Assembly (NCBI GenBank): GCA_043823435.1
Contig: JBDRAV010000002.1
Coordinates: 61,755-125,754, forward strand
DNA: 64,000 bases
Reading direction: 5' to 3'
From: Candidatus Omnitrophota bacterium
Lineage (GTDB): Bacteria > Omnitrophota > Gorgyraeia > Gygaellales > Profunditerraquicolaceae
In this document: in pieces, positions 37,942-61,293 of the stretch
How positions within the stretch are numbered: position 1 is the stretch's first letter
Layout: every line of letters begins with the position of its first letter
Position numbers and translations under genes: made by a program
The notes under the pieces: generated by a model
What the model saw: the letters and a program-made list of their open reading frames with translations, nothing else
Told to the model about the DNA's origin: nothing
The model's database searches: none

Positions 37942-37943
37942 TC

Positions 37944-39104: not shown

Positions 39105-39106
39105 GC

Positions 39107-40120: not shown

Positions 40121-40139
40121 AAATGAAACGGAGGCTATT

Positions 40140-41192: not shown

Positions 41193-41201
41193 GGATAGAT
41201 A

Positions 41202-42425: not shown

Positions 42426-42440
42426 AGAGGGAAAGCCAAG

Positions 42441-42815: not shown

Positions 42816-42816
42816 T

Positions 42817-43944
42817 ATGAAAATGCATATACCTGTTTCCGGACCGTTAATCAGCGGCAGGGCGATACGAAATGTAATATCCGCATTGGAAGAAAGATCC
42901 ATTTCAGGGTTATGTGGGCGCTATCTTAATGAGTTTGAAGGCGCTTTTGCACGCTACTGCGGGAGTAAGTTCGGCGTCGCGACCAATAGCGGCACGACAG
43001 CCCTGCATATAGCCTGCGCGGCGCTCGGCATTAAAAAAGGCGATGAGGTGCTGGTATCGACGTTTACGAATATGGCCACTATTTTTTCCATTTTATATCA
43101 GGGTGCCAGGCCCGTAGCAGTTGATATTGAGCCGGATACCTGGAATATGGACCCTGGTTTACTGGAGAAGAAGGTTACCAGCAGGACAAAAGCCATATTG
43201 GCAGTACATATATACGGCCACCCCGCAGATATGTCTCCTATATTGAGTGTCGCCAGGAGGCACGGGCTTTACGTAATAGAGGATGCTGCTGAAGCGCACG
43301 GCGCACTCTATAACGGCAGAAAGGTGGGTTCTTTCGGGGATGCCGGGTGTTTTAGCTTTTACGCCAATAAGATCATTACCACCGGAGAAGGCGGTATGCT
43401 GGTTACTCAAAGCAGGAGGTTGGCAGATAAGGCGCGCTCATTGAAGAGCCTGGCATTCGGGGATAAAAATAAATTTATGCATCAGGATATAGGATTTGGA
43501 TACAGGATGACGAATATCCAGGCAGCCATAGGATGCGCGCAGCTGGAAGATATCGACAAGATAATCTCGCGTAAACGTCAAATAGCTAAATATTATAATG
43601 AAGGCCTGGCTGACGTCAAGGGCCTGCAGCTTCCGGTAGAGAAGGGCTATGCGAGGTGCGTTTATTGGATGTACCACGTAGTCGTGCATAAAAAATTCGG
43701 TATTTCAAGGGATCTGTTGATGAAAAGGCTCGCAGCTTGCGGTATAGAGACGCGGGAGTCTTTCGTACCCTATAATATGCAGCGTATTTTCATCAGGCGG
43801 GGGTGGGTTAAACCCGCAGAGTGCCCCGTGGCAAATTATGCCGCCAGGAACGGCCTTTATCTTCCCAGCGGACCGGGCTTGAAAGAGAAAGAATTGAATT
43901 ATATCGTAGATAAAATAACAAGTATTCAAAGGAAGTCCAGGTGA
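42817..43944 (+). CDS. DegT/DnrJ/EryC1/StrS family PLP-dependent nucleotide-sugar aminotransferase
   Basis: TNSGTTALHIA; catalytic Lys context FSFYANKIITTGEGG; 375 aa. Confidence 0.85.
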   Translation: MKMHIPVSGPLISGRAIRNVISALEERSISGLCGRYLNEFEGAFARYCGSKFGVATNSGTTALHIACAALGIKKGDEVLVSTFTNMATIFSILYQGARPVAVDIEPDTWNMDPGLLEKKVTSRTKAILAVHIYGHPADMSPILSVARRHGLYVIEDAAEAHGALYNGRKVGSFGDAGCFSFYANKIITTGEGGMLVTQSRRLADKARSLKSLAFGDKNKFMHQDIGFGYRMTNIQAAIGCAQLEDIDKIISRKRQIAKYYNEGLADVKGLQLPVEKGYARCVYWMYHVVVHKKFGISRDLLMKRLAACGIETRESFVPYNMQRIFIRRGWVKPAECPVANYAARNGLYLPSGPGLKEKELNYIVDKITSIQRKSR

Positions 43945-44705
43945 GCAACAACTTTAAAAAATACGCCGGGTATTATGACCTGATCTATAAGGATAAAGAT
44001 TACGGGAAGGAGTGCGAATTCATAGAGCGGATATTTAGAAAGTACGCCGCGCGCAAGCCCCGTTCTATCATGGACCTGGCCTGCGGGACAGGCAGCCATG
44101 CCATATCTCTGGCAGAAAGAGGATACAAGGTATATGGATCCGATATCTCTGCTGCGATGGTCGCGATAGCCAGGAGAAAGTCAAAAGAGAGGGGCCTGGA
44201 TACGGAGTTCCGTAAAGGCAGGATGCAGCATTCTGCTACCAGCAAGAAGTTTGACGCAGCGCTCATATTGTTCGCCTCCATAGATTATCTGACTAAGACA
44301 AAAGATATCAGGGGTACTTTTATCAACGTATCAGAGCACCTGAAAAAGAACGGGCTCTTCATCTTTGATTTCTGGAATGGTGATGCGGTGACCAGGAAGC
44401 TCATACCTAAAAGCACAAAGATAGTTTCCGATAAGGATATGCGGATAAAGAGGTCATGCGTAAAGCGCCTGGACATGGCAGCGCATTTATGCGAAGTGAA
44501 GTTCGATTTTTCGGTATATAAGAAGGGCAAGCTGGCGGATTCATTCCGCGAGAAGCACCTGATCCGTTATTTCTTCCCGGAAGAAATCAGAAGGCGCCTG
44601 GCGCTTTCCGGGTTTGAAATCTTAAAGATCTGCCCGTTTTTGAAATTAGGCAGGAGCATAAACGAAGACGACTGGGATATCACGGTTATAGCCAGGAGAT
44701 CTTAA
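43941..44705 (+). CDS. Class I SAM-dependent methyltransferase
   Basis: Motif I DLACGTGSHAISLA, post-I acidic residue GSDIS. Confidence 0.7.
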   Translation: MSNNFKKYAGYYDLIYKDKDYGKECEFIERIFRKYAARKPRSIMDLACGTGSHAISLAERGYKVYGSDISAAMVAIARRKSKERGLDTEFRKGRMQHSATSKKFDAALILFASIDYLTKTKDIRGTFINVSEHLKKNGLFIFDFWNGDAVTRKLIPKSTKIVSDKDMRIKRSCVKRLDMAAHLCEVKFDFSVYKKGKLADSFREKHLIRYFFPEEIRRRLALSGFEILKICPFLKLGRSINEDDWDITVIARRS

Positions 44706-46226
44706 ATGAAGATTTTGCTTATTAACCCCCCCATAACCAGGCATGAGAGCGACCCTCTGGCAGGAGAAGCGGGGAATCTGCCTCTGGGCCTTTGTTATAT
44801 AGCGGCTTATTTAAAGAAAAATAATTATGAAGTCAGGGTCCTGGATGCTATGGCTGAAGGGGTGGGGAATATTGAAAAGAGGGGGCAATTCGTAAGGACG
44901 GGCCTAAGCGAAGAGAAAATAGAGGAGGCGATCCGCGAATTCAATCCGCAGGTGGTGGGGATAACTACCATGTTTACTTCTTATGCGCAGGATTCACATG
45001 ACATCGCAAAATTGGTTAAGAGGATAGATAATAATATCCTGGTTGTTCTCGGGGGCGTGCATGCTACGGCCTGTTATGATATGGTCTTCTCGGATAAGAA
45101 CGTGGATATTGTAGTGAAAGGTGAGGGGGAGATCACTATCGTGGAATTGATGCGCGCGCTTGAAAAGAAAGAAGCGATTACCGGTATACCGGGAACGATA
45201 GTCAGGTCGGGTGGTGAGCTCTTAAATAACGCGGACAGGCCCTTTATCGAGGACCTGGATAGATTGCCGTTTCCGCAGAGGGAATTCCTTCCCGTAGATG
45301 TATATTTGCGGGGCGCGAGGCTCTCTTATTGTATGCGCCAGCCGGTGATGGGTATGGTGACCAGCCGCGGATGCCCCTGTCGTTGTTCTTATTGCGGCAT
45401 CCACGCCGTCTGGAAGCATACATGGCGGGCCAGGAGCGCGGCTAATGTCGCAGATGAAATAGAATATTTGATCCGCCTATATGGCGCAAAGGAGTTCCAC
45501 TTCTTAGATGACAGCATATCCGCAGATAAACAGCGTATGCATGAAATATGCGATGAGATAATCAAGCGCAAGCTGGATATACGCTGGACTACCCCTAACG
45601 GCATAGCAATATGGACGCTGGACGAGCTGTTGTTAAAGAAGATGCGTAAGAGCGGTTGTTACCGTCTTACTTTCGGGATCGAGTCAGGGAATGAGCCCAC
45701 GCAGAGATTTATCGGAAAAATAATCAAATTCGAGCACGCGAACAGGATAATCAAGGCTGCCAATAGCCTGGGGATGTGGACCCTGGCTACTTTTATCATC
45801 GGTTTCCCCTATGAAACCAGGGAAGAGATCTTTGAAACAATAGAATTTTCCAAGAAATTGGATATTGATATTGCATTTTATAACGTGTTAATGCCTTTTC
45901 CTACTACCAGGGTTTACGAAATATTCCATAAAGAAGGGCTGTTGCCGGTAAACAGGTCTCTGGAATTTTTTAATGCCTTTACCGGAAAAGGCGGCGGGTG
46001 CGATACGAAATTATTCAAGAAGGAAGAATTGGCAGAATTCAGCGATATAGCGCATCGGGAATTCTACCGCAGCAGGATAAAGAAATTCATGAATCCGTTC
46101 AGGATCATGAATAAAATAAGAAGTTGGGAATCCGCAGGTTATGTTTTTACATTGCTCAAAGGAGTCATTTCTTATTCTACGGGAGAGTTTGAAACTAAGT
46201 CGAACCCGGAAAAGGCAAGGACCTGA
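44706..46226 (+). CDS. B12-binding-domain radical SAM protein (class B rSAM, putative methyltransferase)
   Basis: N-terminal cobalamin-binding-like domain; CPCRCSYCG contains the CX3CX2C cluster. Confidence 0.8.
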   Translation: MKILLINPPITRHESDPLAGEAGNLPLGLCYIAAYLKKNNYEVRVLDAMAEGVGNIEKRGQFVRTGLSEEKIEEAIREFNPQVVGITTMFTSYAQDSHDIAKLVKRIDNNILVVLGGVHATACYDMVFSDKNVDIVVKGEGEITIVELMRALEKKEAITGIPGTIVRSGGELLNNADRPFIEDLDRLPFPQREFLPVDVYLRGARLSYCMRQPVMGMVTSRGCPCRCSYCGIHAVWKHTWRARSAANVADEIEYLIRLYGAKEFHFLDDSISADKQRMHEICDEIIKRKLDIRWTTPNGIAIWTLDELLLKKMRKSGCYRLTFGIESGNEPTQRFIGKIIKFEHANRIIKAANSLGMWTLATFIIGFPYETREEIFETIEFSKKLDIDIAFYNVLMPFPTTRVYEIFHKEGLLPVNRSLEFFNAFTGKGGGCDTKLFKKEELAEFSDIAHREFYRSRIKKFMNPFRIMNKIRSWESAGYVFTLLKGVISYSTGEFETKSNPEKART

Positions 46227-47404: not shown

Positions 47405-48994
47405 GTGGCCATAGACAAGAAGAAAAAGATATTAATCATCGGGCTGGATGGGGTTGACCCGGACCTGCTGGATAAGTTTATCAGCGAAGGGATATTGCCG
47501 AATTTTAAGAGGCTGATCGCCAACGGTGCCTACGGGAAGATAAAATCTTCCATACCAATTATAACGACGGTCACCTGGAATTCTTTTATAACCGGGAAGA
47601 ATCCCGGCAAACACGGCATATTCGGCTTCGTCAATTTTAAGAAAGGCTCTTATGAATTGAAGATATTGAATTCAGCCGACCGGAAGGCCGATGGGATATG
47701 GGGATTATTGAACCGTTTCGGGAAGACAGTCGGTATCTTTAATCTTCCGTCATTGTACCCGGCAGAGAAGATAGATAGGTTCATGGTCTGCGGGATGCTC
47801 ACCCCTAATAAAAATAGCCGTTTTATTTATCCTCACGGGCTTCAGGAAGAATTCCTTCGCGAAATAAAAGATTACGAAATAGATGTAGGGGTGGTAAAGG
47901 CGGCCTACGACAGCAAGGATATCCTGCTTAAGAATATGTATTTTTTAACTGACAAGAGGTTCGAGGCGAGCGCGTATTTATTAAATAAGTACCCCTGCGA
48001 CCTGTTTGTAACCATAATCACGGAAACAGACAGGGTCCAGCATTATTTCTTAGATGACGCTGTGGCCTTGCGTGAATATTTCAAATACCTGGATAAAAAG
48101 ACAGGAGAGCTGCTGGCGCAGGCAGGAGATGACGCCACGGTATTTATAGTCTCCGACCATGGCATGGGCGCCTTCAGCAAGTACATCTATATAAACAGGT
48201 TCCTTATGGACGGCGGGTTCTTAAAGATCAACAAGCGCTCGACAAATTACGTAAAGCATTCTTTTACTAAAAAGATAATTCAAGTTCTAAGCACATTTCT
48301 TATGCGGATGAAATTCGATGTGGAACGGCTCAAGAAGATGCTGCCGCAGGGGCTTGTAAACAGCCTTACCTACCTTTATTGTTACTACGGCGGTATTGAC
48401 TGGGGTAAGAGCAGCGCTTATTTTTGTTCGGGCACCGGCGAAGGAATAACCATCAACACAAAGAAGCGTTTCCCCGCGGGGATAGTAGAAGAGCGGGATT
48501 ATGAAGCCCTTAGGGATAATATTATAAAAGGGCTGCTTGGTATCAAGGATCCGGATACGGGAGAGAGGGTCATTGAGGCTGCCTATAAAAGGGAAGAGTT
48601 GCTGAACGGTGATCATACTCAGGAGGCCCCTGACATAATCCTGAGATTACGTGACGGTTATGCTACCAATGAATCCGTAGAAACAGAAGTTGTATTGGGA
48701 GAGCGGCCTTTGCAAGAAATGCTTCTTGCGGAACACCGTTTGGAAGGTATAATTATTGCTTATGGAAAGGACATCAGGCAGGGCGTAAGAATAGAGGGAA
48801 GCAGCATTCTGGATATCGCTCCTACGCTACTGCGCATCTTCGGGATACCCGTGCCGCAGGATTTTGACGGCAAACCGCTGGAGGAGATATTCAAGCCAGG
48901 GGTGTTGAGCTTATCAAAAACCAGACCTCTCGGCGAAGCCGAGGCGTTACAGAAAAGGATCAGAGAATTGAAATCATCCGGCAGGATAAAATAG
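47405..48994 (+). CDS. Alkaline-phosphatase-superfamily protein, type I phosphodiesterase/nucleotide pyrophosphatase (NPP) family
   Basis: ILIIGLDGVDPDLL and PIITTVTWNSFITGKNPGKHGIF match the NPP-family metal site and Thr nucleophile block. Confidence 0.7.
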   Translation: MAIDKKKKILIIGLDGVDPDLLDKFISEGILPNFKRLIANGAYGKIKSSIPIITTVTWNSFITGKNPGKHGIFGFVNFKKGSYELKILNSADRKADGIWGLLNRFGKTVGIFNLPSLYPAEKIDRFMVCGMLTPNKNSRFIYPHGLQEEFLREIKDYEIDVGVVKAAYDSKDILLKNMYFLTDKRFEASAYLLNKYPCDLFVTIITETDRVQHYFLDDAVALREYFKYLDKKTGELLAQAGDDATVFIVSDHGMGAFSKYIYINRFLMDGGFLKINKRSTNYVKHSFTKKIIQVLSTFLMRMKFDVERLKKMLPQGLVNSLTYLYCYYGGIDWGKSSAYFCSGTGEGITINTKKRFPAGIVEERDYEALRDNIIKGLLGIKDPDTGERVIEAAYKREELLNGDHTQEAPDIILRLRDGYATNESVETEVVLGERPLQEMLLAEHRLEGIIIAYGKDIRQGVRIEGSSILDIAPTLLRIFGIPVPQDFDGKPLEEIFKPGVLSLSKTRPLGEAEALQKRIRELKSSGRIK

Positions 48995-49017: not shown

Positions 49018-49494
49018 TTGATGAGAAGGCTTAAGAACTTTATCGGACTTAAATTGATGAGCTTCTTTATAAGGCTTAATTTCCGCCTTATTACAATGTG
49101 CAACGAGAGGATATTTGAGTATCCATGGGTTTTGACGCGCTGCAAGGCCGTGCGAGGGGACAAAATAGGAGACTTTGGCTGCAAGGGTAGCATGCTGGTG
49201 CCTTATTTGTCTTCTTTGGGCTTCCAGGTCTATGGCGTAGATCTTGCCGAGGGGTTGGATTTTTCCTCGCATTTTCTGGATAACTACAAAGATTTCAAAT
49301 TCGTCAAGAGCGATATAAGAAAAATGCCTTTCCCGGATAGTTTTTTTGACGTTTCATTTTCCATATCCACCCTGGAACATATATTCTCCGATGACAATTC
49401 CTGTGAAGATAATATAGCGCTTCAGGAGATTGTCAGAGTGACTAAGTCAGGTGGCCGGATACTTCTGAGTTTTCGTACGGAAGCGGCAATGTAA
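49018..49494 (+). CDS. Class I SAM-dependent methyltransferase fragment (Methyltransf_11-like); probably frameshifted
   Basis: VYGVDLAEG..., SISTLEHI..., GGRILLSF MTase motifs, but only 158 aa; a stop-free, start-less ~70-codon frame continues to ~49700. Confidence 0.5.
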   Translation: MMRRLKNFIGLKLMSFFIRLNFRLITMCNERIFEYPWVLTRCKAVRGDKIGDFGCKGSMLVPYLSSLGFQVYGVDLAEGLDFSSHFLDNYKDFKFVKSDIRKMPFPDSFFDVSFSISTLEHIFSDDNSCEDNIALQEIVRVTKSGGRILLSFRTEAAM

Positions 49495-49714: not shown

Positions 49715-49942
49715 ATGGATAATCAGTCTAACGAATATGTGCAGATCCCGATACCAGGTATAATTGTCGAAAAGATAAAGAAGCGCATCAAGGATACGGA
49801 GTTCTCTACGGTATCCGAATATGTAATGTTTATCCTGAAAGAGGTACTGGGCGAGGAAGATAAAAAGGATATGCTTACCGAAGAAGAGGAGAAAGAGGTA
49901 AAAGAAACCCTTAAGAAACTCGGGTATTTGAAAGATGAATAA
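49715..49942 (+). CDS. Small ribbon-helix-helix (CopG/Arc/MetJ-like) protein with a Lys/Glu-rich tail; overlaps the next gene start by 8 nt
   Basis: YVQIPIPGIIVEKIKKRI...TVSEYVMFILKEVL fits a beta-alpha-alpha RHH pattern; GGAG RBS (AAGGAGAT); 75 aa. Confidence 0.45.
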   Translation: MDNQSNEYVQIPIPGIIVEKIKKRIKDTEFSTVSEYVMFILKEVLGEEDKKDMLTEEEEKEVKETLKKLGYLKDE

Positions 49943-51047
49943 GCCGAATGTGATAGTTCTGACCGTAGATATGGTGCGTAATGACATGCTGGGCAAATTC
50001 CCGGCTTTTAGAAAGCTAAAAGAAAAAGGCGTGCTCTTTTCTCATATGATCACCTACGCCCCATATACGATAGCTTCGCTGCACGCCATCTTTACCGGTA
50101 TGTACGGAAGGGATACGAATGTCGATGCCTATTTCAAGCCGGTAAAATTTGACAAGGACCACTGTTATACCCTTACGCAGTACTTGAAGAAGGACGGCTA
50201 TTATACCGAGGCCGACGTGATGGCGGAGTTGACCATACCGCGCTACGGCTTCGATAAATTTACCGTTCATGACGAGCATAAGGATAACCTCCTGGAGCGG
50301 CACGAGGGGGTTATCGAAAGGGCTATGCGGCAGCAGGAGAGGTTCTTTCTTTACCTGCATTACAGCAATATACATACCGAGATAGTGAAGAACGTAATCA
50401 GGAGATATACCGATTTTGACGCAGGATATTTCGGAAAGATCGATGAGAACCGCGCACAATACGAGACTTATGTGCAAAAGGCATGCGATTACGTGGAAGG
50501 GGTCATTGAGCTTTTCGACAGGCATAATTTATGGGAGAACACCTTATTTATTGTGCTCTCTGACCATGGCTGCGGTATCGGCGAGAAACCGGGGGAAAAG
50601 GCATATGGGGTATATACCTATGATTATTCTATCAAGGTATTCTCTTTCTTCATATACCCGAAGTTTTTACCGCAGAACAAGGAGGTCGGTATCCAGGTAA
50701 GAAGCGTAGATATAATGCCTACGGTACTGGATATCCTGGGTATAGAACCCGATAATGCATATAAACAGATGAGAGGCGCATCATTGATGGAGATGATACG
50801 GGATAGAGATAGTACTGACAGGATCGCTTTCGCGGAAACCGGCGGACTCGAAGGCCCGTATCCGTCCCCCTATCAACCGAACGTAAAGTGCATACGTTCC
50901 AGGAAATGGAAGCTTATCTATAATAGCACAACCGGAGCAAAAGAGCTCTACGATCTGGAGAATGACCCTGGTGAGAAGGATAATTGCATAGATAAATATC
51001 CGGAGCCGGCGTCTGAGCTCTGGAGCGAACTTTCAAAGAATATATAA
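49935..51047 (+). CDS. Sulfatase-fold (PF00884-like) enzyme with Thr in place of the Cys/Ser-FGly nucleophile; predicted phospho- or sulfo-group transferase/hydrolase
   Basis: PNVIVLTVDMVRNDMLG and SDHGCGIGE blocks of the sulfatase fold; the nucleophile segment reads APYTIASLHAIFTG with no C/S-x-P-x-R. Confidence 0.65.
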   Translation: MNKPNVIVLTVDMVRNDMLGKFPAFRKLKEKGVLFSHMITYAPYTIASLHAIFTGMYGRDTNVDAYFKPVKFDKDHCYTLTQYLKKDGYYTEADVMAELTIPRYGFDKFTVHDEHKDNLLERHEGVIERAMRQQERFFLYLHYSNIHTEIVKNVIRRYTDFDAGYFGKIDENRAQYETYVQKACDYVEGVIELFDRHNLWENTLFIVLSDHGCGIGEKPGEKAYGVYTYDYSIKVFSFFIYPKFLPQNKEVGIQVRSVDIMPTVLDILGIEPDNAYKQMRGASLMEMIRDRDSTDRIAFAETGGLEGPYPSPYQPNVKCIRSRKWKLIYNSTTGAKELYDLENDPGEKDNCIDKYPEPASELWSELSKNI

Positions 51048-51051
51048 AATA

Positions 51052-52197
51052 ATGATACAGGCACACGGCGGAAAGCTGGTTAACAGGGTTTTATCCAAAG
51101 AGGATGTATCGCAGATAATCTCACGTTCCAGGTATCTTATGCATTTGAGGGTTGACCATGACACCCTGTTGGATTTAGAGAATATTGCGCTAGGTGTATA
51201 CAGCCCCTTAAAAGGATTTATGGCTGAGGATGAATTCAAGAGCGTGGTATTAAGAAGACGCCTGTCGGATGGGCTGCCTTGGACTATACCCATTGTATTG
51301 CCTGTTAGCAAGGCAGAAGCTAAGAAGCTTTCGCGTTCCGAGATATTGCTCTGTGACCAGGGTGGCCTCCCGATAGGCATTATCAAGCCAGGGGCCCCTT
51401 ACACCATACATAGGGCCAGGGCGGTAAAGCACATATTCGGAACAACCAGCATGAAACACCCCGGGGTGCATAAATTCTATCAGGGATCTGATATATTCCT
51501 GGGTGGCGAGATCTCGCTGATCCGCAAAAATAAATATCCTTTTTATGATTTTAACCTGGAGCCCGCCAAAACCAGGGAGTTGATCCGTAAGAAGAAGTGG
51601 AAGACGATAGCGGGGTTTCAGACCCGTAATATCCCGCACCGGGCGCATGAATTCCTGCAAAAGATAGGCCTCTCGGTGGTAGACGGTATCCTTATCCATC
51701 CTATTATCGGATGGAAGAAAAAAGGGGATTTTAACCCGGAGGTGATCATAAAGGCGTACCAGATACTCATCGAACACTACTATCCGCGTGACCGAGTGAT
51801 ATTCTCAGGGCTTGCTACGGCGATGAGGTATGCAGGCCCGCTGGAAGCGGTCTTCCACGCCATTATACGCAAGAATTTTGGATGTACCCACTTTATTGTA
51901 GGCAGGGACCACGCAGGGGTGGGAGGGTTTTACGATAAATATGCCGCGCACCGCATATTTGATAAGTTTCCCGATTTAGGGATAGTCCCCATGCTCTTAA
52001 ACGGCCCTTATTATTGCAAAAAGTGCCTGAGCGTGGTAAGCGACAAGATATGCCCGCATCGCGATACGCACAATATCGAGATAAGCGGTACGCTCATCCG
52101 CCGCATGATCTCCCGGGGAGAACGCATACCGGATGAATATCTGCGCGAAGAGGTCGGAGAGTTTATCTATAAGCATAAAGACAGGTGTTTTATCTGA
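51052..52197 (+). CDS. sat: Sulfate adenylyltransferase (ATP sulfurylase, homo-oligomeric type)
   Basis: QTRNIPHRAHEF and VGRDHAGVG signature motifs plus N-terminal PUA-like domain; 381 aa. Confidence 0.9.
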   Translation: MIQAHGGKLVNRVLSKEDVSQIISRSRYLMHLRVDHDTLLDLENIALGVYSPLKGFMAEDEFKSVVLRRRLSDGLPWTIPIVLPVSKAEAKKLSRSEILLCDQGGLPIGIIKPGAPYTIHRARAVKHIFGTTSMKHPGVHKFYQGSDIFLGGEISLIRKNKYPFYDFNLEPAKTRELIRKKKWKTIAGFQTRNIPHRAHEFLQKIGLSVVDGILIHPIIGWKKKGDFNPEVIIKAYQILIEHYYPRDRVIFSGLATAMRYAGPLEAVFHAIIRKNFGCTHFIVGRDHAGVGGFYDKYAAHRIFDKFPDLGIVPMLLNGPYYCKKCLSVVSDKICPHRDTHNIEISGTLIRRMISRGERIPDEYLREEVGEFIYKHKDRCFI

Positions 52198-52210
52198 AAG
52201 GAGAAGAGTA

Positions 52211-53671
52211 ATGGTAAAAATAATCTCCACAATAAGCCCGAAGACAGGTAGGCTTAAAGGGATAGACGTCGGAAGGATAAATTGCGCATTCGGCCCAAAA
52301 GAAGAGATCGCGCAGCTTGCCGGAAAGATAAAAGGCCCCTGGGGCTATCAATTACTACTGGACCTGCCGATCAACAGGAAGAAGATACGTACAAATGAAC
52401 TCTCTGCCGAAGAACTCATCGCCCTTGCCATACGCATAAAACCACAATATGTGGCTTTATCTTACGTAAAGTCCCACCGCGATATCGAAAGCTTCCGCAA
52501 GCACTTCGAGAAGACGGGGATACAAATAGTTTCTAAGATCGAGGCTGCCGAGGCGATGGAAGACCTGGACAGGATAATCCTTTTTTCGGACGCGGTAATG
52601 ATAGACAGGGGCGACCTTGCCGTTTCCATAGGTATAGAGAAACTGCACCAGGCGCAGAAGAGGATAGTGCGTAAATGCAATGAGCTCGGCAGGCAGGTCA
52701 TCGTAGCCACGGAGTTCCTCTTATCCATGGTTGACAATAATCAACCCACCAAGTCCGAGGTCGTGGATATAGCTAATGCCATCTCTGACGGCGCTGATTT
52801 CATAATGCTTTCCGAAGAGACCGCTATCGGTAATTTCTCGCAGCATTCTGTGGACGTGATCAAGAAGATCATCGCAGAGCTGGAGGACAAATATAAGGTA
52901 ATACTCCTTTCCGCCGGGGCTTCCATAGGGATGGGGGCGCTTACCGCACAACGCCATACCTGCCTTGTAGATATAGGCAATACGACTATCCTAGAGACGC
53001 AGCTGGCGGCTTGCAGGTATTGCAATATCAACGACGAAGATATCGTGATAGCCACGGGGAAAGGGGATTCGGCCATACGCGACTTCGTGCACCACAAACT
53101 TAAGAAAACAGATATAGAATTTGTTTATAACCCCTGGTATGAGAATTCCAATATGCTGGTTACGATATGGCTGGCGCGTGAATTTATCCGTAAGGGCTTT
53201 ATCGTGATTTACGGGGATGTTATTTTTGACCCCGAGATCTTAAAGCGAATCATCAAAAACCAGGACGACATCGTCCTGGGGGTGGAGAAGAAGAGGTGCG
53301 ACGAAGAGGATGAAAAGATCTGTATCAAAGACGGTATAATGACCCTGTCCAAGGAATACGCCAGCCTGCCGTTTCCCAGGCACAAGTGCATACCCGTCAA
53401 TGAAGCTTACGGAGAATTCATTGGTATCGCGAAGTTCAACCGATGGGGCGCTAATATACTTATAAATGAAATGGATAAGATCGTAAGAGAGAGCGACCTG
53501 AAGATCTATCTTATGGAGGCCTTTGAGCACCTTGCGGCAAAAGGGTATAGACTGAATATCGAAGATATCACCGGCCTTCCCTGGAATGACAATGATACCA
53601 TATATGACCTGAATTTAACGCGCGATAAGGTATTGCCAGATATGCGCAAAAGGCATAACCGCATTTTTTGA
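52211..53671 (+). CDS. Fusion protein: N-terminal pyruvate-kinase-like barrel domain (no PK C-terminal regulatory domain) plus C-terminal LicC/CTP:phosphocholine-cytidylyltransferase-like nucleotidyltransferase domain
   Basis: PK motifs KIISTISPKT, GRINCAFG, MIDRGDLAVSIGIEKL, VATEFLLSM, MLSEETAIG; then ILLSAGASIGMG...LVDIGNTTILETQL NT-domain G-loop and a ~230-aa NTP_transferase-like region; RBS AAGGAGAAGAG; start 14 nt after the sat stop. Confidence 0.7.
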   Translation: MVKIISTISPKTGRLKGIDVGRINCAFGPKEEIAQLAGKIKGPWGYQLLLDLPINRKKIRTNELSAEELIALAIRIKPQYVALSYVKSHRDIESFRKHFEKTGIQIVSKIEAAEAMEDLDRIILFSDAVMIDRGDLAVSIGIEKLHQAQKRIVRKCNELGRQVIVATEFLLSMVDNNQPTKSEVVDIANAISDGADFIMLSEETAIGNFSQHSVDVIKKIIAELEDKYKVILLSAGASIGMGALTAQRHTCLVDIGNTTILETQLAACRYCNINDEDIVIATGKGDSAIRDFVHHKLKKTDIEFVYNPWYENSNMLVTIWLAREFIRKGFIVIYGDVIFDPEILKRIIKNQDDIVLGVEKKRCDEEDEKICIKDGIMTLSKEYASLPFPRHKCIPVNEAYGEFIGIAKFNRWGANILINEMDKIVRESDLKIYLMEAFEHLAAKGYRLNIEDITGLPWNDNDTIYDLNLTRDKVLPDMRKRHNRIF

Positions 53672-53672
53672 T

Positions 53673-55433
53673 ATGCTTAAACCCGGTAAGAATATACTTA
53701 TAATACTGCTGTTTTTCATTATCGCCTCGATATTTACTTATCCGCTGGCCCTGAAGATGGATAAGGCGATACCGGGTTTTGGCAGTACGGACGAACCTTT
53801 TGCAGTAATATCTAATATGTGGTTAGTAAAATATAGCTCCCAGCGCGGGATAGACCTGAAGAATAATGACTATATAGCTTATCCTTTCGGAGTAGACCTG
53901 ACCGCTTACTGGGGGAGCTCATACCTTTGGGAATACCTAAAGAATACCCTGTCTTTTATCACAAGCCATATCGTTGCCTTTAATATCCTGATATTCATGA
54001 GTTTTATCCTTTCGGGGTGGTTCACTTACCTGTTGGTTTACCGCCTCACTGGTTCCGCTGTGGCAGGGATATTCTCCGGGGCGATATTCTCACTGTGCCC
54101 GTATCATTTTGCCCGTGTCTGGCAGCACCTGGCGCTTTCCCAGATCCAATGGATGCCGTTATATCTGTTAAGCCTGCTATCTTTCAAGGATAAGCCCGTT
54201 CCTAGAAATATATTTTTTGTCGCGGTATCTTTATTTTTAGTGGTTTCTTTTAATTTTTATTACGCCTATTTTATGGCGGTGGCGAGCGCCCTCTTCGTCG
54301 TTTTTATTATTAAGGAGAACGGTATTAGAAGGGCGGCGTTTAATTATATATCGAAACTTTTTCTTGCCTACTTGATAGTCTTGGTCATGATAGCACCTAA
54401 CCTGTGGGAGGTTTATAAGTATAAGAATTCATCCAGGCGCGATATCCCGCTTGAACATAATATTGCGCAGCGCCCCTTCGATGATTTATTTTCGCAATCC
54501 GCAAGGCCGTTAAGTTATATTTTACCTTCCAGCGAACACCCTCTTTTCGGGGGGATTGCCCGGATCTTCCTGGGCAGTAAATTATACGGCGAAAGCCTTA
54601 CGGAACATGCGCTTTATCTGGGGTGGATACCGCTTATTCTCGCTTTTATGGTTTATCGTAAGTGCAGGAAAGACGCGCATAAACTAAAATATAAGAAGGA
54701 TGTTTTCTGCCTCGATTTCTTTGTATGGCTTGCCGTTATCAGCTGGTTATTTTCGCAGCCCCCATGGTGGCAGATAGGTCCGTTTAGGGTATATATGCCG
54801 TCTTTTTTTATGTATAAAGCCCTGCCGATGTTCAGGGCATATTGCAGGTTCGGCGTAGTCCTGATGTTGGCAGTCGCGGTGCTGGCGGGTTTTGGCCTGA
54901 GGTACCTTTTGGAGCGTTATAATAATAAGGCGTTAAAAGGGGTACTGGTTACGGTCGTATTTGGCATGCTTTTCTTTGAGTTCCTGAACTTTCCGCCCCT
55001 CAAGGTCATAGAATTAGATAATTCCCCAGCGGTATACGAGTGGTTAAGCAAACAGAAGGGTGATTTTGCGGTAGCAGAATACCCGCTTGATTACCAGAGC
55101 CAAAACGTGTATTATTTATTCTATCAGACCGTGCACCGTAAAAAGATTATAAATGCTAGTAATCCCGGGACTTACGCCAGCAGTGTCGCGAAGCTTATCC
55201 GTACACTCTCCGATCCCGATACCGTTAAAATCCTGAATTGGATGGGGGTAAAGTATGTGATAGTCCATCGCGACGATTATATAAATACAGGGTTGATCGA
55301 TGAGATAGATGAGGCAAAGAAGATATCCTTTAACCCTCTGTTGAAATTTGTACGGAGTTTTCCTGATACGGATTTATACGCGATAAATACCCGCGAGAAA
55401 TTGGATCCGGAGACGTTGTTGCGTTCTCCATAA
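53673..55433 (+). CDS. Large polytopic membrane protein, putative GT-C-fold glycosyltransferase (YfhO/ArnT/PMT-like)
   Basis: About 12-14 TM helices, 586 aa, N-terminal FTYPLALKMDKAIPGFGSTDEP region resembling GT-C/YfhO proteins; no soluble-domain motifs found. Confidence 0.45.
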   Translation: MLKPGKNILIILLFFIIASIFTYPLALKMDKAIPGFGSTDEPFAVISNMWLVKYSSQRGIDLKNNDYIAYPFGVDLTAYWGSSYLWEYLKNTLSFITSHIVAFNILIFMSFILSGWFTYLLVYRLTGSAVAGIFSGAIFSLCPYHFARVWQHLALSQIQWMPLYLLSLLSFKDKPVPRNIFFVAVSLFLVVSFNFYYAYFMAVASALFVVFIIKENGIRRAAFNYISKLFLAYLIVLVMIAPNLWEVYKYKNSSRRDIPLEHNIAQRPFDDLFSQSARPLSYILPSSEHPLFGGIARIFLGSKLYGESLTEHALYLGWIPLILAFMVYRKCRKDAHKLKYKKDVFCLDFFVWLAVISWLFSQPPWWQIGPFRVYMPSFFMYKALPMFRAYCRFGVVLMLAVAVLAGFGLRYLLERYNNKALKGVLVTVVFGMLFFEFLNFPPLKVIELDNSPAVYEWLSKQKGDFAVAEYPLDYQSQNVYYLFYQTVHRKKIINASNPGTYASSVAKLIRTLSDPDTVKILNWMGVKYVIVHRDDYINTGLIDEIDEAKKISFNPLLKFVRSFPDTDLYAINTREKLDPETLLRSP

Positions 55434-57200: not shown

Positions 57201-59018
57201 ATGAATATTTTAGGCATATCTTCTTTTTATCATGATAGCGCGGCGTGCCTGGTAAGGGATGGCGACATCGTTGCCGCGGCGCAGGAGGAGCGGTTTACCC
57301 GCAAGAAACATGATTTTAATTTCCCTCTCAATTCCATAAACTGGTGCCTTGAGGCCGCAGGAATCATACCGCAGGAACTTGATTATGTCATCTTCTATGA
57401 TAAGCCTTTTATTAAATTCGAAAGAATCCTGGAAACTGCCCTTACTTATGCCCCTTCGGGCGTGCGGCAATTTATCCAGGCGATGCCGCTATGGTTGAAA
57501 CAAAAGCTCTGGATCCCCGAGTTGATAAGAAAGGACCTGCATTATAAGGGCAGGATATTATTCTGCGGCCATCACGAATCACACGCTGCCAGTGCATTTT
57601 ATCCTTCGCCTTTCAAGAGTGCTGCATTTCTGACTATGGACGGCGTGGGGGAGTGGGATACAGCCAGCTTCGGGATAGGAGAGGGAAACGACATTGAAAT
57701 TCTACAGACTTTGAGGTTTCCACATTCTCTGGGCCTTTTGTATTCCACTTTTACGTATTACACTGGCTTTAAAGTAAATTCCGGGGAGTATAAATTAATG
57801 GGCCTGGCCCCGTACGGTGAGCCGAAATACGCAGGGCCGATTCTTGATGAATTAATAGATCTTAAGGAAGACGGTTCATTTAAATTAAATATGAAATTTT
57901 TCGGTTACTGTGACGGACTTAAGATGACTAACCGCAGATTTGAAAAGTTATTCGGCGGTCCGGCCAGGAAGCCGGAAACAAAAATAACAAAAAAGGATAT
58001 GGATATTGCGGCCTCGATACAGAAGGTAGCCGAAGAGGTCATACTGCGTATGGTAAGGCATGTGCATAAAGTTACAGGTAAGAGCAGCCTTTGCCTTGCG
58101 GGCGGAGTAGCTTTGAACTGCGTGGGTAACGGCCGTATTTTACGGGAAGGCCCGTTTAAAAATATATGGATCCAGCCGGCCAGCGGCGATGCAGGGGCGG
58201 CATTGGGTGCTGCGCTTCTGGTCTGGTATAGGTATTTAGGGAATAGGCGTTATAGCGACGATAAGAAAGATAGCCAGAAAGCATCTCTACTGGGGCCCGC
58301 GTACACAGACGCAGATATAGAGGATTTTCTGGTAAAAGAAAAAGTCCCTTATAAGAAGCTTGAGTATTCAGATATCCCTGAAAGAGTGGCGGAGCTGATC
58401 GCTCAGGGCAATGTAATCGGGTGGTTTCAGGGGCGCCTTGAGTTTGGCCCGAGGGCGCTGGGGGCAAGGAGCATAATCGCAGATGCCAGAAGCCCCCAAA
58501 TGCAGTCCAGGATGAACCTGAAAATAAAATACCGGGAGTCTTTCCGGCCCTTTGCCCCTACGGTCTTAAGCGAAAAGGCTTCGGAGTGGTTTGAAATAAC
58601 ACCGGAAAGCCCCTATATGCTTCTGGTTGCTGCGGTAAGAGAAGATAAAAGAGCGGATCCCGGGGTAGGGGAAAGCGGATTATCGGGATTTGACAAACTG
58701 AAAGTAATACGTTCGCAAATACCGGCAGTAACTCACGTCGATAATTCAGCCAGGATACAGACGATTAAAAGAGAAGACAATCCTTTATATTATGATATGA
58801 TAAGTGCGTTTTACAAGAAAACGGCTTGTCCGGTTATAATAAATACATCTTTTAACGTAAGAGGGGAACCTCTTGTATGTAGCCCCGAGGACGCATTCAA
58901 GTGTTTTATAAGGACAGGAATGGATTATCTGATCATGGGCCCTTTTCTGCTGGATAAGAAAGGGCAAAAGCCGCTTGAGAAAGACATAAAATGGCAGGAG
59001 GTTTTTGAGTTGGATTAA
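57201..59018 (+). CDS. NodU/CmcH-family O-carbamoyltransferase
   Basis: MNILGISSFYHDSAACLVRDGDIVAAAQEERFTRKKHD is the YrdC/Kae1-like NodU N-terminus; 605 aa. Confidence 0.9.
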   Translation: MNILGISSFYHDSAACLVRDGDIVAAAQEERFTRKKHDFNFPLNSINWCLEAAGIIPQELDYVIFYDKPFIKFERILETALTYAPSGVRQFIQAMPLWLKQKLWIPELIRKDLHYKGRILFCGHHESHAASAFYPSPFKSAAFLTMDGVGEWDTASFGIGEGNDIEILQTLRFPHSLGLLYSTFTYYTGFKVNSGEYKLMGLAPYGEPKYAGPILDELIDLKEDGSFKLNMKFFGYCDGLKMTNRRFEKLFGGPARKPETKITKKDMDIAASIQKVAEEVILRMVRHVHKVTGKSSLCLAGGVALNCVGNGRILREGPFKNIWIQPASGDAGAALGAALLVWYRYLGNRRYSDDKKDSQKASLLGPAYTDADIEDFLVKEKVPYKKLEYSDIPERVAELIAQGNVIGWFQGRLEFGPRALGARSIIADARSPQMQSRMNLKIKYRESFRPFAPTVLSEKASEWFEITPESPYMLLVAAVREDKRADPGVGESGLSGFDKLKVIRSQIPAVTHVDNSARIQTIKREDNPLYYDMISAFYKKTACPVIINTSFNVRGEPLVCSPEDAFKCFIRTGMDYLIMGPFLLDKKGQKPLEKDIKWQEVFELD

Positions 59019-60569: not shown

Positions 60570-61292
60570 ATGATAAATATAGCCGATACAGGAGAAAGGA
60601 TACTCCCCGAGAAAGAATCTCCGTTGATGACGGCGAGGCACTTGTGCGCCTACAAATTCGCCAGGGACCTCCTCGCAGGTAAAGGGGTATTGGATATAGG
60701 TTGCGGCGAAGGTTACGGCAGCTATTATTTAAGCGGGTCTTCCAAAGAGGTAACGGCCATAGACTACAACCAGGAAATAATAGATCACGCGAAGAATAAA
60801 TATATTGCGAACAACCTGGAATTTTACAGTTTAGATATAAAAGATCTATGTTCCCTGAAAGGCAAATTCGATGCAATATGTTCTTTTCAGGTCATAGAGC
60901 ACCTGCAAGATACGCAGGGGTTCCTGAAGAATATAAAGCTTCTTTTGAATCCCGCAGGCATTTTTATCTGTTCAACCCCGAACATGCTGGATGCCTCACA
61001 AAACAGCGTTAGGCCCCTGAACAGGTTTCATGTCAGGGAGTATCTGTTTGATGAATTCAGGCAATTGCTAGGAGTACATTTTAAGAGAATAGAAATATCG
61101 GGTTTAAAAAAAGGGGCCAGGCTTAATGTGTACAGGATGCTTAAGAAGTCGGGGCTCTTTAATTTTTTGCCTGACCCGATAAACCCCGTAAAGAAATTCT
61201 ACCAGAAGATAGATTGCGGTAATTTCATCATTGTTAAAAAAGGCCTGGATACGGCCCTGGATTTTATCGCAGTATGCAGCGACCCGGTTTAA
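60570..61292 (+). CDS. Class I SAM-dependent methyltransferase
   Basis: Motif I VLDIGCGEGYGSYYLS, motif II ICSFQVIEHL. Confidence 0.7.
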   Translation: MINIADTGERILPEKESPLMTARHLCAYKFARDLLAGKGVLDIGCGEGYGSYYLSGSSKEVTAIDYNQEIIDHAKNKYIANNLEFYSLDIKDLCSLKGKFDAICSFQVIEHLQDTQGFLKNIKLLLNPAGIFICSTPNMLDASQNSVRPLNRFHVREYLFDEFRQLLGVHFKRIEISGLKKGARLNVYRMLKKSGLFNFLPDPINPVKKFYQKIDCGNFIIVKKGLDTALDFIAVCSDPV

Positions 61293-61293
61293 T

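Follow-up and report, generated by a model that had tools for sequence, protein, structure and literature searches.

A conserved pairing of ATP sulfurylase with a pyruvate kinase-nucleotidyltransferase fusion in Omnitrophota and Planctomycetota, with a probable role in glycan decoration

The genes for an ATP sulfurylase (Sat) and for a protein that joins a pyruvate kinase (PK)-like domain to a nucleotidyltransferase (NT)-like domain form a real gene module, which usually includes a sulfatase-fold protein of the Thr type (SulfT) and an NPP-type protein and usually lies among glycan and envelope genes. The cassette probably puts sulfate or a similar charged group on cell-surface sugars. Within it, the PK::NT fusion would probably process APS, possibly as a PEP-dependent 3'-kinase.

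The window, a 64-kb stretch of DNA from a Candidatus Omnitrophota MAG, carries four closely spaced genes for soluble proteins on the + strand: a small CopG-named protein (49715-49942, 75 aa), SulfT (49935-51047, 370 aa), Sat (51052-52197), and the PK::NT fusion (52211-53671, 486 aa). An ORF check bore out the strand and coordinates that an earlier note on this DNA had given for this packed group. The small ORF overlaps SulfT by 8 nt and is translationally coupled to it, while SulfT and sat are separated by 4 nt and sat and the fusion by 13 nt, the last distance being measured to the likely true start, an ATG at 52211 preceded by an AGGAG box as ribosome-binding site; the longest ORF of the fusion begins at 52133, within sat. 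A polytopic membrane protein of no assigned family (53673-55433, + strand; 586 aa, eight hydrophobic segments) begins 1 nt after the fusion ends. Upstream on the same strand are a B12-binding radical SAM enzyme (44706-46226; PF02310 and PF04055), the NPP-type gene (47405-48994), and, between the latter and the module, a class I SAM methyltransferase (49018-49494; 158 aa, PF08241 at 7.9e-16).

Sat adjoins PK::NT in all 21 informative loci, which come from Omnitrophota and Planctomycetota and include Kuenenia, and the proposal that these genes act as one module therefore holds across two phyla. The order differs by lineage, being SulfT-Sat-PKNT in one and PKNT-Sat-SulfT in the other, and the stop and start codons of module genes often overlap in the related loci. 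A search for co-occurrence of sat, the fusion, and the Thr-type gene showed that the module usually comes with a Thr-type protein: SulfT orthologues of 45-54% identity adjoin Sat/PK::NT in L003, L005, L010, L011, L090, and L094 (orthologues overall occur in only 7 of the 21 loci), and distant membrane-anchored Thr-type relatives are found in five further loci. Homologues of the NPP-type protein are present in L001, L003, L005, L007, L011, and L090, and those of the radical SAM enzyme, recurrent in Omnitrophota-type loci, in L001, L007, and L090. The glycan-locus setting described for the window also recurs, with flippases, glycosyltransferases, YfhO, PAP2, TagF-like, and CDP-alcohol transferase-like genes as neighbors.

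Two close neighbors do not share this conservation. The small protein, which had been taken for a ribbon-helix-helix (RHH) regulator belonging to the module, has no significant Pfam or NCBIfam match and no homologue in the 21 related loci; the RHH call goes back solely to its NCBI name, "CopG family transcriptional regulator," and the gene lies outside the conserved core. The 586-aa membrane protein likewise has no Pfam or NCBIfam match and no homologue among the related loci, and it is possibly a glycan-handling membrane enzyme.

By its sequence, Sat is a canonical ATP sulfurylase of the homo-oligomer type, with a PUA-like domain (PUA_2, PF14306) and a catalytic domain (PF01747, 6.9e-85). It scores 473 bits against NF003166, for which the cutoff is 387, and matches the structurally characterized Methanothermococcus enzyme 8a8d at 3e-117, with complete FQTRN.PH..HE and GRDHAGVG motifs; its predicted activity in the cassette is APS formation. 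The conventional partners of such an enzyme were not found. Escherichia coli CysC, CysH, and CysQ queries gave no tblastn matches in the 64-kb window, and no homologues of the three were detected in the neighborhoods of the 21 related loci. Sulfotransferases, APS kinases, and reductases were absent from the Pfam matches of the window ORFs (for ORFs in 1-26 kb, among the best 25 families listed), and no Sulfotransfer-family match occurred in the annotated neighborhoods. An assimilatory role for the cassette Sat is unlikely, as had been argued from the window, because cysC, cysH, and cysQ are not near any of these loci.

The fusion is a pyruvate kinase relative that has been extensively remodeled. 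Domain searches upheld the calls of a sulfatase, an ATP sulfurylase, a PK, and a LicC/PntC-like NT domain, the PK call with the limit that PF00224 (1.2e-42) covers profile positions 180-328 only and that the fusion scores below every NCBIfam pyruvate kinase cutoff; PF12804 was also matched in this protein. The description "bona fide" for its barrel is thus too strong: residues 1 to ~235 in the window's fusion correspond to the A-domain barrel without the B and C domains. Related fusions are of a short type, which lacks the B domain, and a long type, which has a shortened one of ~85 aa with its KG.N motif retained; the C domain is never present. Along the barrel half, identity to real PKs reaches 50%. 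In an alignment of 28 fusions the PK residues R22, N24, D51, K109, E111, and D135 are invariant, as is the family-specific D132, and the motif xxDRGD is found in 105/105 fusions versus xxARGD in 9/9 canonical PKs.

The NT fold (residues ~236-486) has PntC and LicC as its nearest solved relatives, its family profile matching 6pd1 at 3.9e-31 and 1jyk at 8.9e-28. The catalytic-type residues of the fold (YGD, DEEDEK, GEFIG, WNDND) are strongly conserved in the 28 aligned fusions. The NTP-binding signature, however, is degenerate: its Arg is retained in only 4 of 94 fusions versus 107 of 109 free relatives, and short-type fusions lack the Lys as well. Because the Arg is lost in 90/94 fusions, this half is unlikely to be an ordinary cytidylyltransferase working with CTP, which tells against the suggestion that it makes CDP- or CMP-activated donors. 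The AF2 model of the fusion (pLDDT 90.6) has PK as its nearest fold; with a pTM of 0.61, how the domains pack is uncertain. The NT domain begins three residues past the last barrel helix, at an end that in the PK fold faces away from the active site, and cooperation of the two halves within one chain is doubtful for that reason. We found no description of a PK::NT fusion in the literature searched, in keeping with the view that a PK-like domain in such a role has not been described.

SulfT matches the Sulfatase family (PF00884, 4e-25), and in a phmmer alignment its "PyTIASlhaifTG" lies over "PiCAASRaslwTG" of the sulfatase 6hr5, placing Thr45 at the formylglycine-forming Cys/Ser position, as first noticed from the window. 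T45, D12, D210, and H211 are invariant across 36 homologues, and the Thr is invariant throughout a broad family. SulfT, for all its sulfatase shape, cannot be a sulfatase; it is a candidate group transferase, and it has no hydrophobic segments. A comparison with LtaS and EptA had been drawn on the strength of the Thr. The fold does not follow it, since the AF2 model (pLDDT 92) lies nearest to true S1 sulfatases (TM 0.72-0.78) and not to LtaS or EptA. The transferase role gains independent support from the company that the family keeps elsewhere, beside LicC/Cj1416-type nucleotidyltransferases in phosphoramidate clusters of the Campylobacter type and in phosphonate clusters. SulfT directly follows GlnK-GATase-NT genes (Cj1418/1417/1416-like) in 15/15 extended loci and is present in about 12 PEP-mutase phosphonate loci of the type Ppm-Ppd-NT-rSAM-NUDIX-NT. 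In Campylobacter jejuni, Cj1415-1418 produce CDP-phosphoramidate 3'-phosphate (PMC11800397). APS kinase-like (CysC-like) and CysQ-like genes accompany SulfT in cassettes L122, L145, and L170; most phosphoramidate-type SulfT cassettes have no kinase within 5-10 kb, and SulfT may therefore not require a 3'-phosphorylated donor. Methyltransferases adjoin SulfT homologues in L172, L173, and L107-type loci.

The NPP-type protein noted upstream (529 aa, soluble; PF01663 at 9e-40) belongs to the alkaline phosphatase superfamily. Among PDB sequences it matches phosphonoacetate hydrolase 3szy best, and its Thr nucleophile aligns to the nucleophile-bearing region of PhnA, within which we assume the position of the nucleophile. 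It would be either a second transferase or a hydrolase of the nucleotide by-product.

These observations lead us to a model in which Sat would form APS from ATP and sulfate and the fusion would then take up APS. The NT-like half would bind a nucleotide anhydride, since it has lost the pyrophosphate-handling Arg and kept the nucleotide- and Mg-binding residues, and the PK-like half, with its PEP/Mg residues kept, its ADP lid lost, and an Asp gained as a possible base, would move phosphate from PEP. On grounds of analogy and elimination, a 3'-phosphorylated donor resembling PAPS is the likeliest product, in which case the fusion would play the part taken by CysC and, in the Campylobacter phosphoramidate pathway, by Cj1415; PEP-dependent conversion of APS to PAPS, raised speculatively from the sequence, appears to be the single best-fitting specific function. 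SulfT would act in the cytoplasm, moving the sulfuryl group to a glycan by way of a covalent intermediate on its Thr, a transfer perhaps shared by NPP-type or membrane-anchored Thr-type relatives, and, most speculatively, NPP-type, PHP, or Metallophos neighbors might clear the nucleotide by-product.

In favor of this reading we count the strict Sat/PK::NT pairing, the canonical Sat without its conventional partners, the remodeled fusion, the soluble S1-type fold of SulfT with its invariant Thr, the link of SulfT to nucleotide-anhydride pathways, sister cassettes with 3'-kinase-type genes, and the envelope context. Counted against it are the scarcity of SulfT orthologues, the kinase-less phosphoramidate-type cassettes, and the doubtful intrachain cooperation. 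A sulfo-Thr intermediate is also chemically awkward, and Thr-type members of the superfamily normally transfer phosphoryl groups. Finally, in L001, L007, L088, L089, and L091 the fusion has TagF-like or CDP-alcohol phosphotransferase-like genes next to it, which suggests an NDP-alcohol product instead.

Such a product is central to a Kennedy-type scheme, unlikely in our estimation, in which the PK half would phosphorylate a small alcohol or hydroxy acid with PEP (the LicA role) and the NT half would convert it to NDP-X (the LicC/PntC role), phospho-X then being moved to the glycan by SulfT, NPP-type, TagF-like, CDP-alcohol transferase-like, or PAP2 enzymes. Sat would serve a separate sulfation or supply APS as nucleotidyl donor to an NT that has given up pyrophosphate handling. 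A kinase followed by an NT is the usual logic of LicC/PntC/Cj1416-type enzymes, to which the closest solved structures belong; the fusion directly adjoins a CDP-alcohol phosphotransferase-like gene in L007 and L091, another such gene lies upstream in L088, L001 and L089 carry TagF-like genes and nine loci PAP2_3 proteins, and the free NT relatives P0166 and P0172 are fused to TagF-like domains. The new invariant Asp would suit an alcohol acceptor, and loss of the Arg a leaving group other than pyrophosphate. However, this scheme does not account for Sat being the sole invariable neighbor; APS in place of ATP as adenylyl donor brings no net energetic gain, the residues for NTP use are missing (the Arg, and in the short type the Lys), and no conserved gene is a candidate for synthesis of X. 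It is rather improbable that the PK half instead uses PEP to turn ADP, or some other NDP, into its triphosphate, driving the unfavorable Sat reaction or an adjacent nucleotidyltransferase, with the NT-like half as a regulatory or docking domain. The retained PEP/Mg residues, the long-type B domain with KG.N, the identity to real PKs of up to 50%, the NT-like domain sitting where the allosteric C domain would, and a Lys at the rabbit Glu117 position, which we take to mark K+-independent PKs, agree with it, but short-type fusions without the nucleotide lid keep the same partners, Sat does not release ADP, and the NT motifs are conserved beyond the needs of docking.

More improbable still is a phosphorus donor, with Sat adenylylating a sulfate-sized dianion such as phosphoramidate, made by the PK half from PEP and ammonia, and SulfT installing a phosphoramidate-type group for subsequent methylation. 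ATP sulfurylase takes fluorophosphate, and PK acts on small nucleophiles as a side activity. The occurrence of SulfT homologues alongside methyltransferases in phosphoramidate-type and phosphonate cassettes, and the methyltransferase just upstream of the module in the window, fit this idea, but we know of no precedent for ammonia phosphorylation by a PK, the anion-binding motifs of Sat are those of sulfate-using enzymes (3e-117 to a bona fide ATP sulfurylase), and the NT half would have no role. EC 2.7.7.51, APS-to-phosphoramidate chemistry that would favor such a donor, is mentioned in PMC6429109. We strongly disfavor, as very improbable, the view that an assimilatory sat and a pyruvate kinase paralogue were placed by chance in a polysaccharide locus with no common pathway. 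Public names ("pyruvate kinase," "sulfate adenylyltransferase," "sulfatase-like hydrolase/transferase") suggest as much, but adjacency persists in two phyla despite inverted order and differing surroundings, the fusion stays below all PK equivalog cutoffs, its B and C domains are missing, and reductive assimilation genes were not found nearby.

Sulfate transfer by way of APS thus remains our preferred reading. In cassettes of this group, a small tetrahedral anion would be converted to a nucleotide mixed anhydride, and the soluble Thr-nucleophile SulfT would pass its terminal group to an envelope glycan. With confidence that falls slightly short of even, we propose that glycan-tailoring cassettes with nucleotide-anhydride donors form a broader, mostly uncharacterized group, of which the module described here may be the sulfate member.

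The cassette comprises four + strand genes, encoding a 75-aa protein (49715..49942), the soluble 370-aa sulfatase-fold protein SulfT (49935..51047), the ATP sulfurylase Sat (51052..52197), and the 486-aa fusion PK::NT (52211..53671), in which a pyruvate-kinase (PK) barrel is joined to a LicC/PntC-like nucleotidyltransferase (NT) domain. Each cassette protein belongs to a known superfamily yet misses a defining feature of its characterised family, though Sat agreed with its family in both tests applied to it. The earlier note had called these genes tightly packed, and the measured spacing confirms it: the small open reading frame and the SulfT gene overlap by 8 nt, gaps of 4 nt and 13 nt separate SulfT from Sat and Sat from the fusion, and 1 nt separates the fusion, whose start ATG at 52211 is preceded by an AGGAG box, from the gene for a 586-aa membrane protein. 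The four cassette proteins and the NPP-type protein encoded upstream (47405..48994, + strand) are predicted to be cytoplasmic because none of them contains a hydrophobic segment.

Housekeeping genes occupy 0-26 kb of the window, and a single long polysaccharide locus at ~29-59 kb encloses the cassette, with a flippase, GT2 and GT4 glycosyltransferases, radical SAM enzymes, sugar dehydratases, aminotransferases, an asparagine-synthase-like gene, and a carbamoyltransferase. Within it, the intervals 36157-44705 and 57201-59018 encode several uncommon tailoring enzymes: an asparagine-synthase-like amidotransferase, a GDSL-like protein, a radical SAM-SPASM enzyme, a sugar C-methyltransferase (Methyltransf_13/14), a DegT aminotransferase, and a NodU/CmcH-type carbamoyltransferase; the sugar product of the surrounding locus is probably heavily modified. 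Two large polytopic membrane proteins, one of 586 aa with 8 hydrophobic segments (53673-55433, its gene translationally coupled to the fusion) and one of 705 aa with ~14 (61231-63348), had no Pfam or NCBIfam match. The window shows an unusually uniform strand bias: every real-looking open reading frame of at least 150 aa is on the + strand, and all 2-kb bins from 1 to 64000 have positive GC skew. Promoter and terminator scanning gave counts at chance level and did not delimit the operon.

The small protein matched no RHH family at E<=1 in Pfam or E<=0.01 in NCBIfam, and CopG is its NCBI name alone. Its C terminus, LKKLGYLKDE (49900-49942), carries an L-x-x-LGYL ending that also closes the sulfatase-fold proteins of two related loci, L003 (ELKKLGYLP, ~5710-5762) and L001 (LQGLGYLQ, ~5480-5520), and this may be a C-terminal motif common to them. 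In the NPP-type protein (PF01663, 9.1e-40), a stretch with a putative Thr nucleophile near the N terminus, ipiiTtvtwnSfiTG..HGI, aligns with the nucleophile-holding region of PhnA (3szy).

By sequence, Sat is an ordinary ATP sulfurylase. It contains both a PUA-like domain (PF14306, 2.1e-42) and PF01747 (6.9e-85), scores above curated NCBIfam cutoffs (NF003166, 473 bits versus 387; TIGR00339, 350 versus 323), and matches the Methanothermococcus thermolithotrophicus ATP sulfurylase 8a8d at 3e-117. The active-site motifs QTRN, HxxH, and GRDHAG are unchanged, and both 8a8d and 1v47 have identical residues at FQTRNIPHRAHE and VGRDHAGVG.

The N-terminal half of the fusion is a true PK barrel (PF00224, 1.2e-42) with up to ~50% identity to canonical pyruvate kinase over 150 residues, and pyruvate kinases were the only folds returned in a search with the whole fusion. 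Like canonical pyruvate kinase, it keeps the catalytic Arg/Asn/Asp, Lys-x-Glu, RGD, and Thr/Ser residues: 28 aligned fusions show no variation at R22, N24, D51, K109, E111, or D135 and conserve T/S167. Unlike canonical pyruvate kinase, the window fusion has no match to the PK C domain (PF02887) and no B (lid) domain insertion, and the NCBIfam PK models, whose cutoffs are 306-686 bits, score it at 189 bits at most. The fusions fall into a short type of ~480 aa, mostly from Omnitrophota, in which the B domain is gone, and a long type of ~580 aa, mostly from Planctomycetota, in which it is shortened. All 105 fusions read xxDRGD where 9/9 canonical PK matches read xxARGD, an Ala-to-Asp change beside the metal-binding Asp. 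The Lys at the rabbit Glu117 position we take to mark K+-independent pyruvate kinases. A second apparent change, Gly to Glu in LSEET, was rejected as fusion specific since it is common to the canonical PKs P0112, P0117, and P0118.

The nearest solved relatives of the NT half, by NT-domain profile, are PntC (6pd1, 3.9e-31) and LicC (1jyk, 8.9e-28), and PF12804 matches at 28 bits against a cutoff of 27. The Arg of the signature G-x-G-x-R is present in only 4/94 fusions versus 107/109 free relatives, that is, NT relatives not fused to PK. The Lys after this Arg is present in all 58 long-type fusions and in 0/36 of the short type, the window protein among them, while the Mg- and substrate-side motifs YGD, DEEDEK, GEFIG, and WNDND are still conserved. 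We take the signature Arg to handle the pyrophosphate leaving group, and assume the usual roles for the Arg and Lys of nucleotidyltransferases and for the PK residues. The description of this protein as a PK-like::cytidylyltransferase-like fusion stands, with corrections: the PF00224 barrel and the LicC/PntC-like profile match uphold it, but the PK C and B domains are missing, the PK cutoffs are not reached, and the NT signature Arg is gone. The NT domain starts three residues past the last barrel helix, at an end of the barrel that we take, from the PK fold, to face away from the PK active site; with an AF2 pTM of 0.61, any cooperation between the domains would have to be between subunits.

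Neither a PK::NT fusion nor its association with Sat came up in full-text literature searches, which also yielded nothing relevant to the cysC status of the carrier phyla. The closest known architecture is the fusion of PEP mutase (Ppm) to PntC; about 60% of PEP mutases carry NT fusions (PMC6697681). As in Ppm-PntC and Fom1, a PEP-binding TIM barrel is joined to a PF12804 LicC-like NT in a cell-surface tailoring locus with B12-radical SAM genes near; unlike them, the barrel is that of PK and not of the ICL/PEP-mutase family, and the NT signature Arg is lost. That the barrel might be a PEP mutase was ruled out, as it has no PF13714 match and no EDKxxxxxNS motif, and no phosphonopyruvate decarboxylase accompanies it.

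Related loci were collected by exact-protein matches and two profile scans of genome and metagenome contigs and compared by blastp and by tblastn with defined queries. The full-length fusion alignment, whose pattern MLSEETA is also present in canonical PKs, recovered mostly ordinary pyruvate kinases and added five true fusion loci; the NT-domain alignment did better. Sat immediately adjoins the fusion in 21/21 loci with enough sequence, and four more end at the fusion. Short-type loci are arranged SulfT-Sat-PKNT and long-type loci PKNT-Sat-SulfT, and stop and start codons often overlap. The carriers include a 2.26-Mb contig from a planctomycete (L005) and a Candidatus Kuenenia stuttgartiensis metagenome-assembled genome (L010). 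A SulfT orthologue (45-54% identity) is present in 7 loci. Five further loci encode larger sulfatase-fold proteins with N-terminal hydrophobic regions, and all three of those read by inspection have Thr at the nucleophile position.

NPP-type proteins occur in 7 loci, the window included; PAP2_3 membrane proteins in 9, in planctomycetes usually divergent from PKNT and beside a PTS EIIA-like gene; CDP-alcohol phosphotransferase-like genes in L007, L088, and L091; TagF-like genes in L001 and L089; a PHP-like gene in L007; and Metallophos genes in L088 and L091. Closely related planctomycete loci may have their common neighbors by descent rather than function. L005 (4239-9736), L006, L009, L011, L012, L098, and L102 conserve, just upstream of and divergent from PKNT-Sat, genes for a PTS EIIA(Fru/Ntr)-like protein of ~150 aa and for a PAP2/PAP2_3 membrane protein of 610-650 aa; that a PEP-linked phosphocarrier lies beside a fusion that binds PEP could be significant or could simply reflect inherited synteny. 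In the glycan cluster of the short-type locus L088 (6855-8559), the genes directly upstream of Sat-PKNT encode a GAPDH homologue and an additional IspD-like NT, a hint that the substituent of this variant is a C3 acid or alcohol. The HAD phosphatase of L001 was considered as a 3'-phosphatase and rejected; it was left uncounted because it scores as GmhB (heptose bisphosphate phosphatase).

The earlier note had seen no APS kinase or reductase genes near sat, and this holds more widely: tblastn with E. coli queries found no CysC, CysH, or CysQ homologues in the window or the 21 related loci. Of these queries, CysC was validated by its matches in three other loci. No Sulfotransfer family (Pfam) was found in the annotated neighborhoods of the window and related loci, and tblastn with the homologues of the glutamine kinase Cj1418 and the gamma-glutamyl-CDP-amidate hydrolase Cj1417 from L107, a locus with a free NT, gave no match in either the window or the 21 loci with fusions. 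The cassette resembles the Sat/CysC route to PAPS in placing a canonical ATP sulfurylase directly beside its presumed APS consumer, as sat and cysC usually are, and nearby phosphoesterases could clear nucleotide by-products as in Sat/CysC/CysQ systems. It differs in that its loci lack a P-loop APS kinase, a Sulfotransfer fold, and CysQ, and have instead the PK-barrel::NT fusion and a Thr-type sulfatase-fold protein.

SulfT combines PF00884 with SGSH_C. Its AF2 model (pLDDT 92) has S1 carbohydrate or choline sulfatases as its nearest solved folds, and the best 50 Foldseek matches are all sulfatases (TM 0.72-0.78). The formylglycine motif C/S-x-P/A-x-R is T-I-A-S-L in SulfT, bearing out the claim that Thr replaces the formylglycine-forming Cys/Ser. 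This Thr (T45) is invariant in 36 homologues, as are D12, the N-terminal Asp, and D210 and H211, the Asp-His metal ligands; in place of the motif Arg, the window protein has Leu and the other four aligned orthologues have Leu, Val, or Ile. Judged from these residues, SulfT cannot form formylglycine. A hydroxyl nucleophile in place of formylglycine, the conserved Asp and Asp-His ligands, and a putative role in envelope-glycan decoration are shared with LtaS, EptA/MCR-1, OpgB, and BcsG, and N-terminal membrane domains like those of such enzymes are present in the larger relatives from L001, L006, and L088. Unlike them, SulfT is S1-sulfatase-like, is soluble and predicted to be cytoplasmic, lacks the N-terminal membrane domain typical of the LtaS/EptA type, gives marginal matches only to LtaS and EptA models, and is partnered by nucleotide-activating enzymes rather than phospholipid donors.

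The SulfT family comprises at least 691 proteins below 1e-20, in Omnitrophota, Planctomycetota, Hydrogenedentota, Thermodesulfobacteriota, Methylomirabilales, and DPANN archaea. The NT-domain metagenome scan yielded 67 loci with free NT relatives, in two classes. In class N (~20 loci), an 812-aa PPDK_N/PEP-utilizer protein (NF004508, 851 bits) is followed by a class I amidotransferase, whose best NCBIfam match is gamma-glutamyl-CDP-amidate hydrolase (4e-34, below cutoff), and then by the free NT; by homology this is the gene set of the Campylobacter O-methyl phosphoramidate (MeOPN) pathway. All 15 class N loci that extend further have a SulfT homologue after the NT or close beside it, often accompanied by a conserved 412-aa protein, a methyltransferase, and a second sulfatase-fold protein. 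The widespread environmental cassette at L107 (1495-10148), seen also in L111, L116, L123, L133, L140, L143-L145, L151, L153, L157, L164, and L165, consists of a Cj1418-like kinase (812 aa), a Cj1417-like amidohydrolase, a Cj1416-like NT, a SulfT homologue, the 412-aa protein (no Pfam match), a methyltransferase, and a second sulfatase-fold protein of ~450 aa, and looks like a non-Campylobacter MeOPN pathway with other downstream enzymes.

Class P consists of clusters with PEP mutase and phosphonopyruvate decarboxylase, including a subclass of ~12 loci arranged Ppm-Ppd-NT-B12 radical SAM-(Metallophos)-NUDIX-NT-SulfT-TauD. The phosphonate cluster L122 (1883-16558) encodes PEP mutase, a split TPP decarboxylase, two LicC-like NTs, a 701-aa B12 radical SAM protein, NUDIX and Metallophos proteins, a TauD-like dioxygenase, and two sulfatase-fold proteins; L114, L128, L130, L139, L148, L158, and L159 resemble it. 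An APS-kinase-like gene adjoins a CysQ-like gene in L122, L145, and L170, which for the phosphonate cluster L122 suggests 3'-phosphorylated CMP-phosphonate donors. One nanoarchaeal and one thermodesulfobacterial genome carry a triad of sulfatase-fold protein, SulfT, and methyltransferase within glycan loci. Across these cassettes, then, SulfT is found together with enzymes that join small tetrahedral groups to nucleotides as mixed anhydrides, whether CMP-phosphonates, CDP-amidate, or, here, APS. Among the free NT relatives, P0166 (1276 aa) and P0172 (848 aa) are fused, judged by eye, to TagF-like glycerophosphotransferase and GT2 domains and look like single-chain activate-and-transfer enzymes; the nearest free relative, P0124, is on a contig of only 2 kb.

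In Campylobacter, Cj1415-Cj1418 make CDP-phosphoramidate 3'-phosphate and Cj1421/22 are required for transfer (PMC11800397; the pathway is also outlined in PMC6429109). The window cassette would resemble that system in activating an anion as a nucleotide anhydride, maturing the donor, and passing it to a glycan, and the NT half of the fusion is in the same broad LicC/Cj1416-like family. It differs in that activation would be by Sat, the kinase candidate has the PK fold rather than the CysC fold, and no glutamine kinase or amidohydrolase homologue is present in the window or related loci; the C. jejuni MeOPN cluster is not known to have a sulfatase-fold gene. The Haloferax sulfation factor Agl7 was set aside as a comparison, its protein family not being stated in the source consulted.

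Beyond these identities, folds, active-site changes, and synteny, we infer the following mechanism. Since nucleotide-anhydride makers are the common denominator of its neighborhoods, SulfT would be the best candidate for moving the terminal group from a nucleotide-anhydride donor to the glycan via a covalent Thr intermediate. Sat is the only canonical activating enzyme in the cassette, so the donor should derive from APS, and the fusion, an obligatory partner of Sat as CysC is elsewhere, should act on APS. On the model of sister cassettes, in which the 3'-kinase is of CysC type and the phosphatase of CysQ type (Cj1415 in Campylobacter; the genes in L122, L145, and L170), PK::NT is proposed as the APS kinase: its NT fold would keep nucleotide and Mg binding minus the pyrophosphate-handling residue, its PK fold would keep PEP chemistry while dispensing with the ADP lid, and the gained Asp could be a base for a hydroxyl acceptor. 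NPP, PHP, or Metallophos neighbors would clear the nucleotide by-product. We put an APS-centered glycan-decoration cassette, most likely for sulfate, at slightly under an even chance. That PK::NT is a PEP-dependent kinase turning APS into a PAPS-like donor, the best specific proposal and one made by analogy, is tentative and rather doubtful. So, taken whole, is a sulfation route that dispenses with CysC and a conventional sulfotransferase, in which PK-derived maturation of APS with PEP is followed by a Thr-type sulfatase-fold sulfotransferase whose family would also be the missing installer of phosphonate and phosphoramidate on microbial surface glycans; we consider it unlikely in this full form. 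Counting against the preferred, APS-centered model are the position of the NT domain away from the PK active site, the unusual chemistry that a sulfo-Thr intermediate would be, and the majority of class N cassettes, which have no kinase in the DNA examined.

Several phospho-alcohol transferase types surround the fusion (CDP-alcohol transferase-like, TagF-like, and PAP2_3), as would suit a Kennedy-type scheme in which the PK half uses PEP to phosphorylate a small alcohol or acid and the NT half makes NDP-X; this scheme leaves the invariable Sat neighbor unexplained, and we think it a minority prospect. The kept PK catalytic residues could serve ATP regeneration alone, but the short type, having lost its B domain, is at odds with that role, which we regard as improbable. 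A phosphorus-based donor made via Sat, for which we rely on a presumed substrate range of ATP sulfurylases, conflicts with the unchanged sulfate pocket and is very improbable, and the synteny makes a coincidental adjacency of Sat and the fusion scarcely credible.

The kind of system is known, as nucleotide-activated anions decorate glycans in both sulfation and MeOPN modification, but here at least two steps would use unexpected folds. If the preferred model is true, what is new is a PK barrel recruited outside glycolysis to partner ATP sulfurylase, a nucleotidyltransferase fold re-used minus its pyrophosphate-handling residue, and a sulfatase fold made into a transferase by a formylglycine-to-Thr swap. 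The tie of SulfT to three different activation cassettes is a useful generalization: the transfer step of phosphonate surface tailoring has been called enigmatic (PMC6697681), and the SulfT family is a concrete candidate for it and for the corresponding step in environmental phosphoramidate-type clusters. Public databases currently label the fusion "pyruvate kinase" and SulfT "sulfatase-like hydrolase," so that glycolysis and sulfatases are overcounted in Planctomycetota, anammox bacteria, and Omnitrophota. In these same groups, sulfated or other anionic surface glycans bear on aggregation, granule formation, and host attachment.
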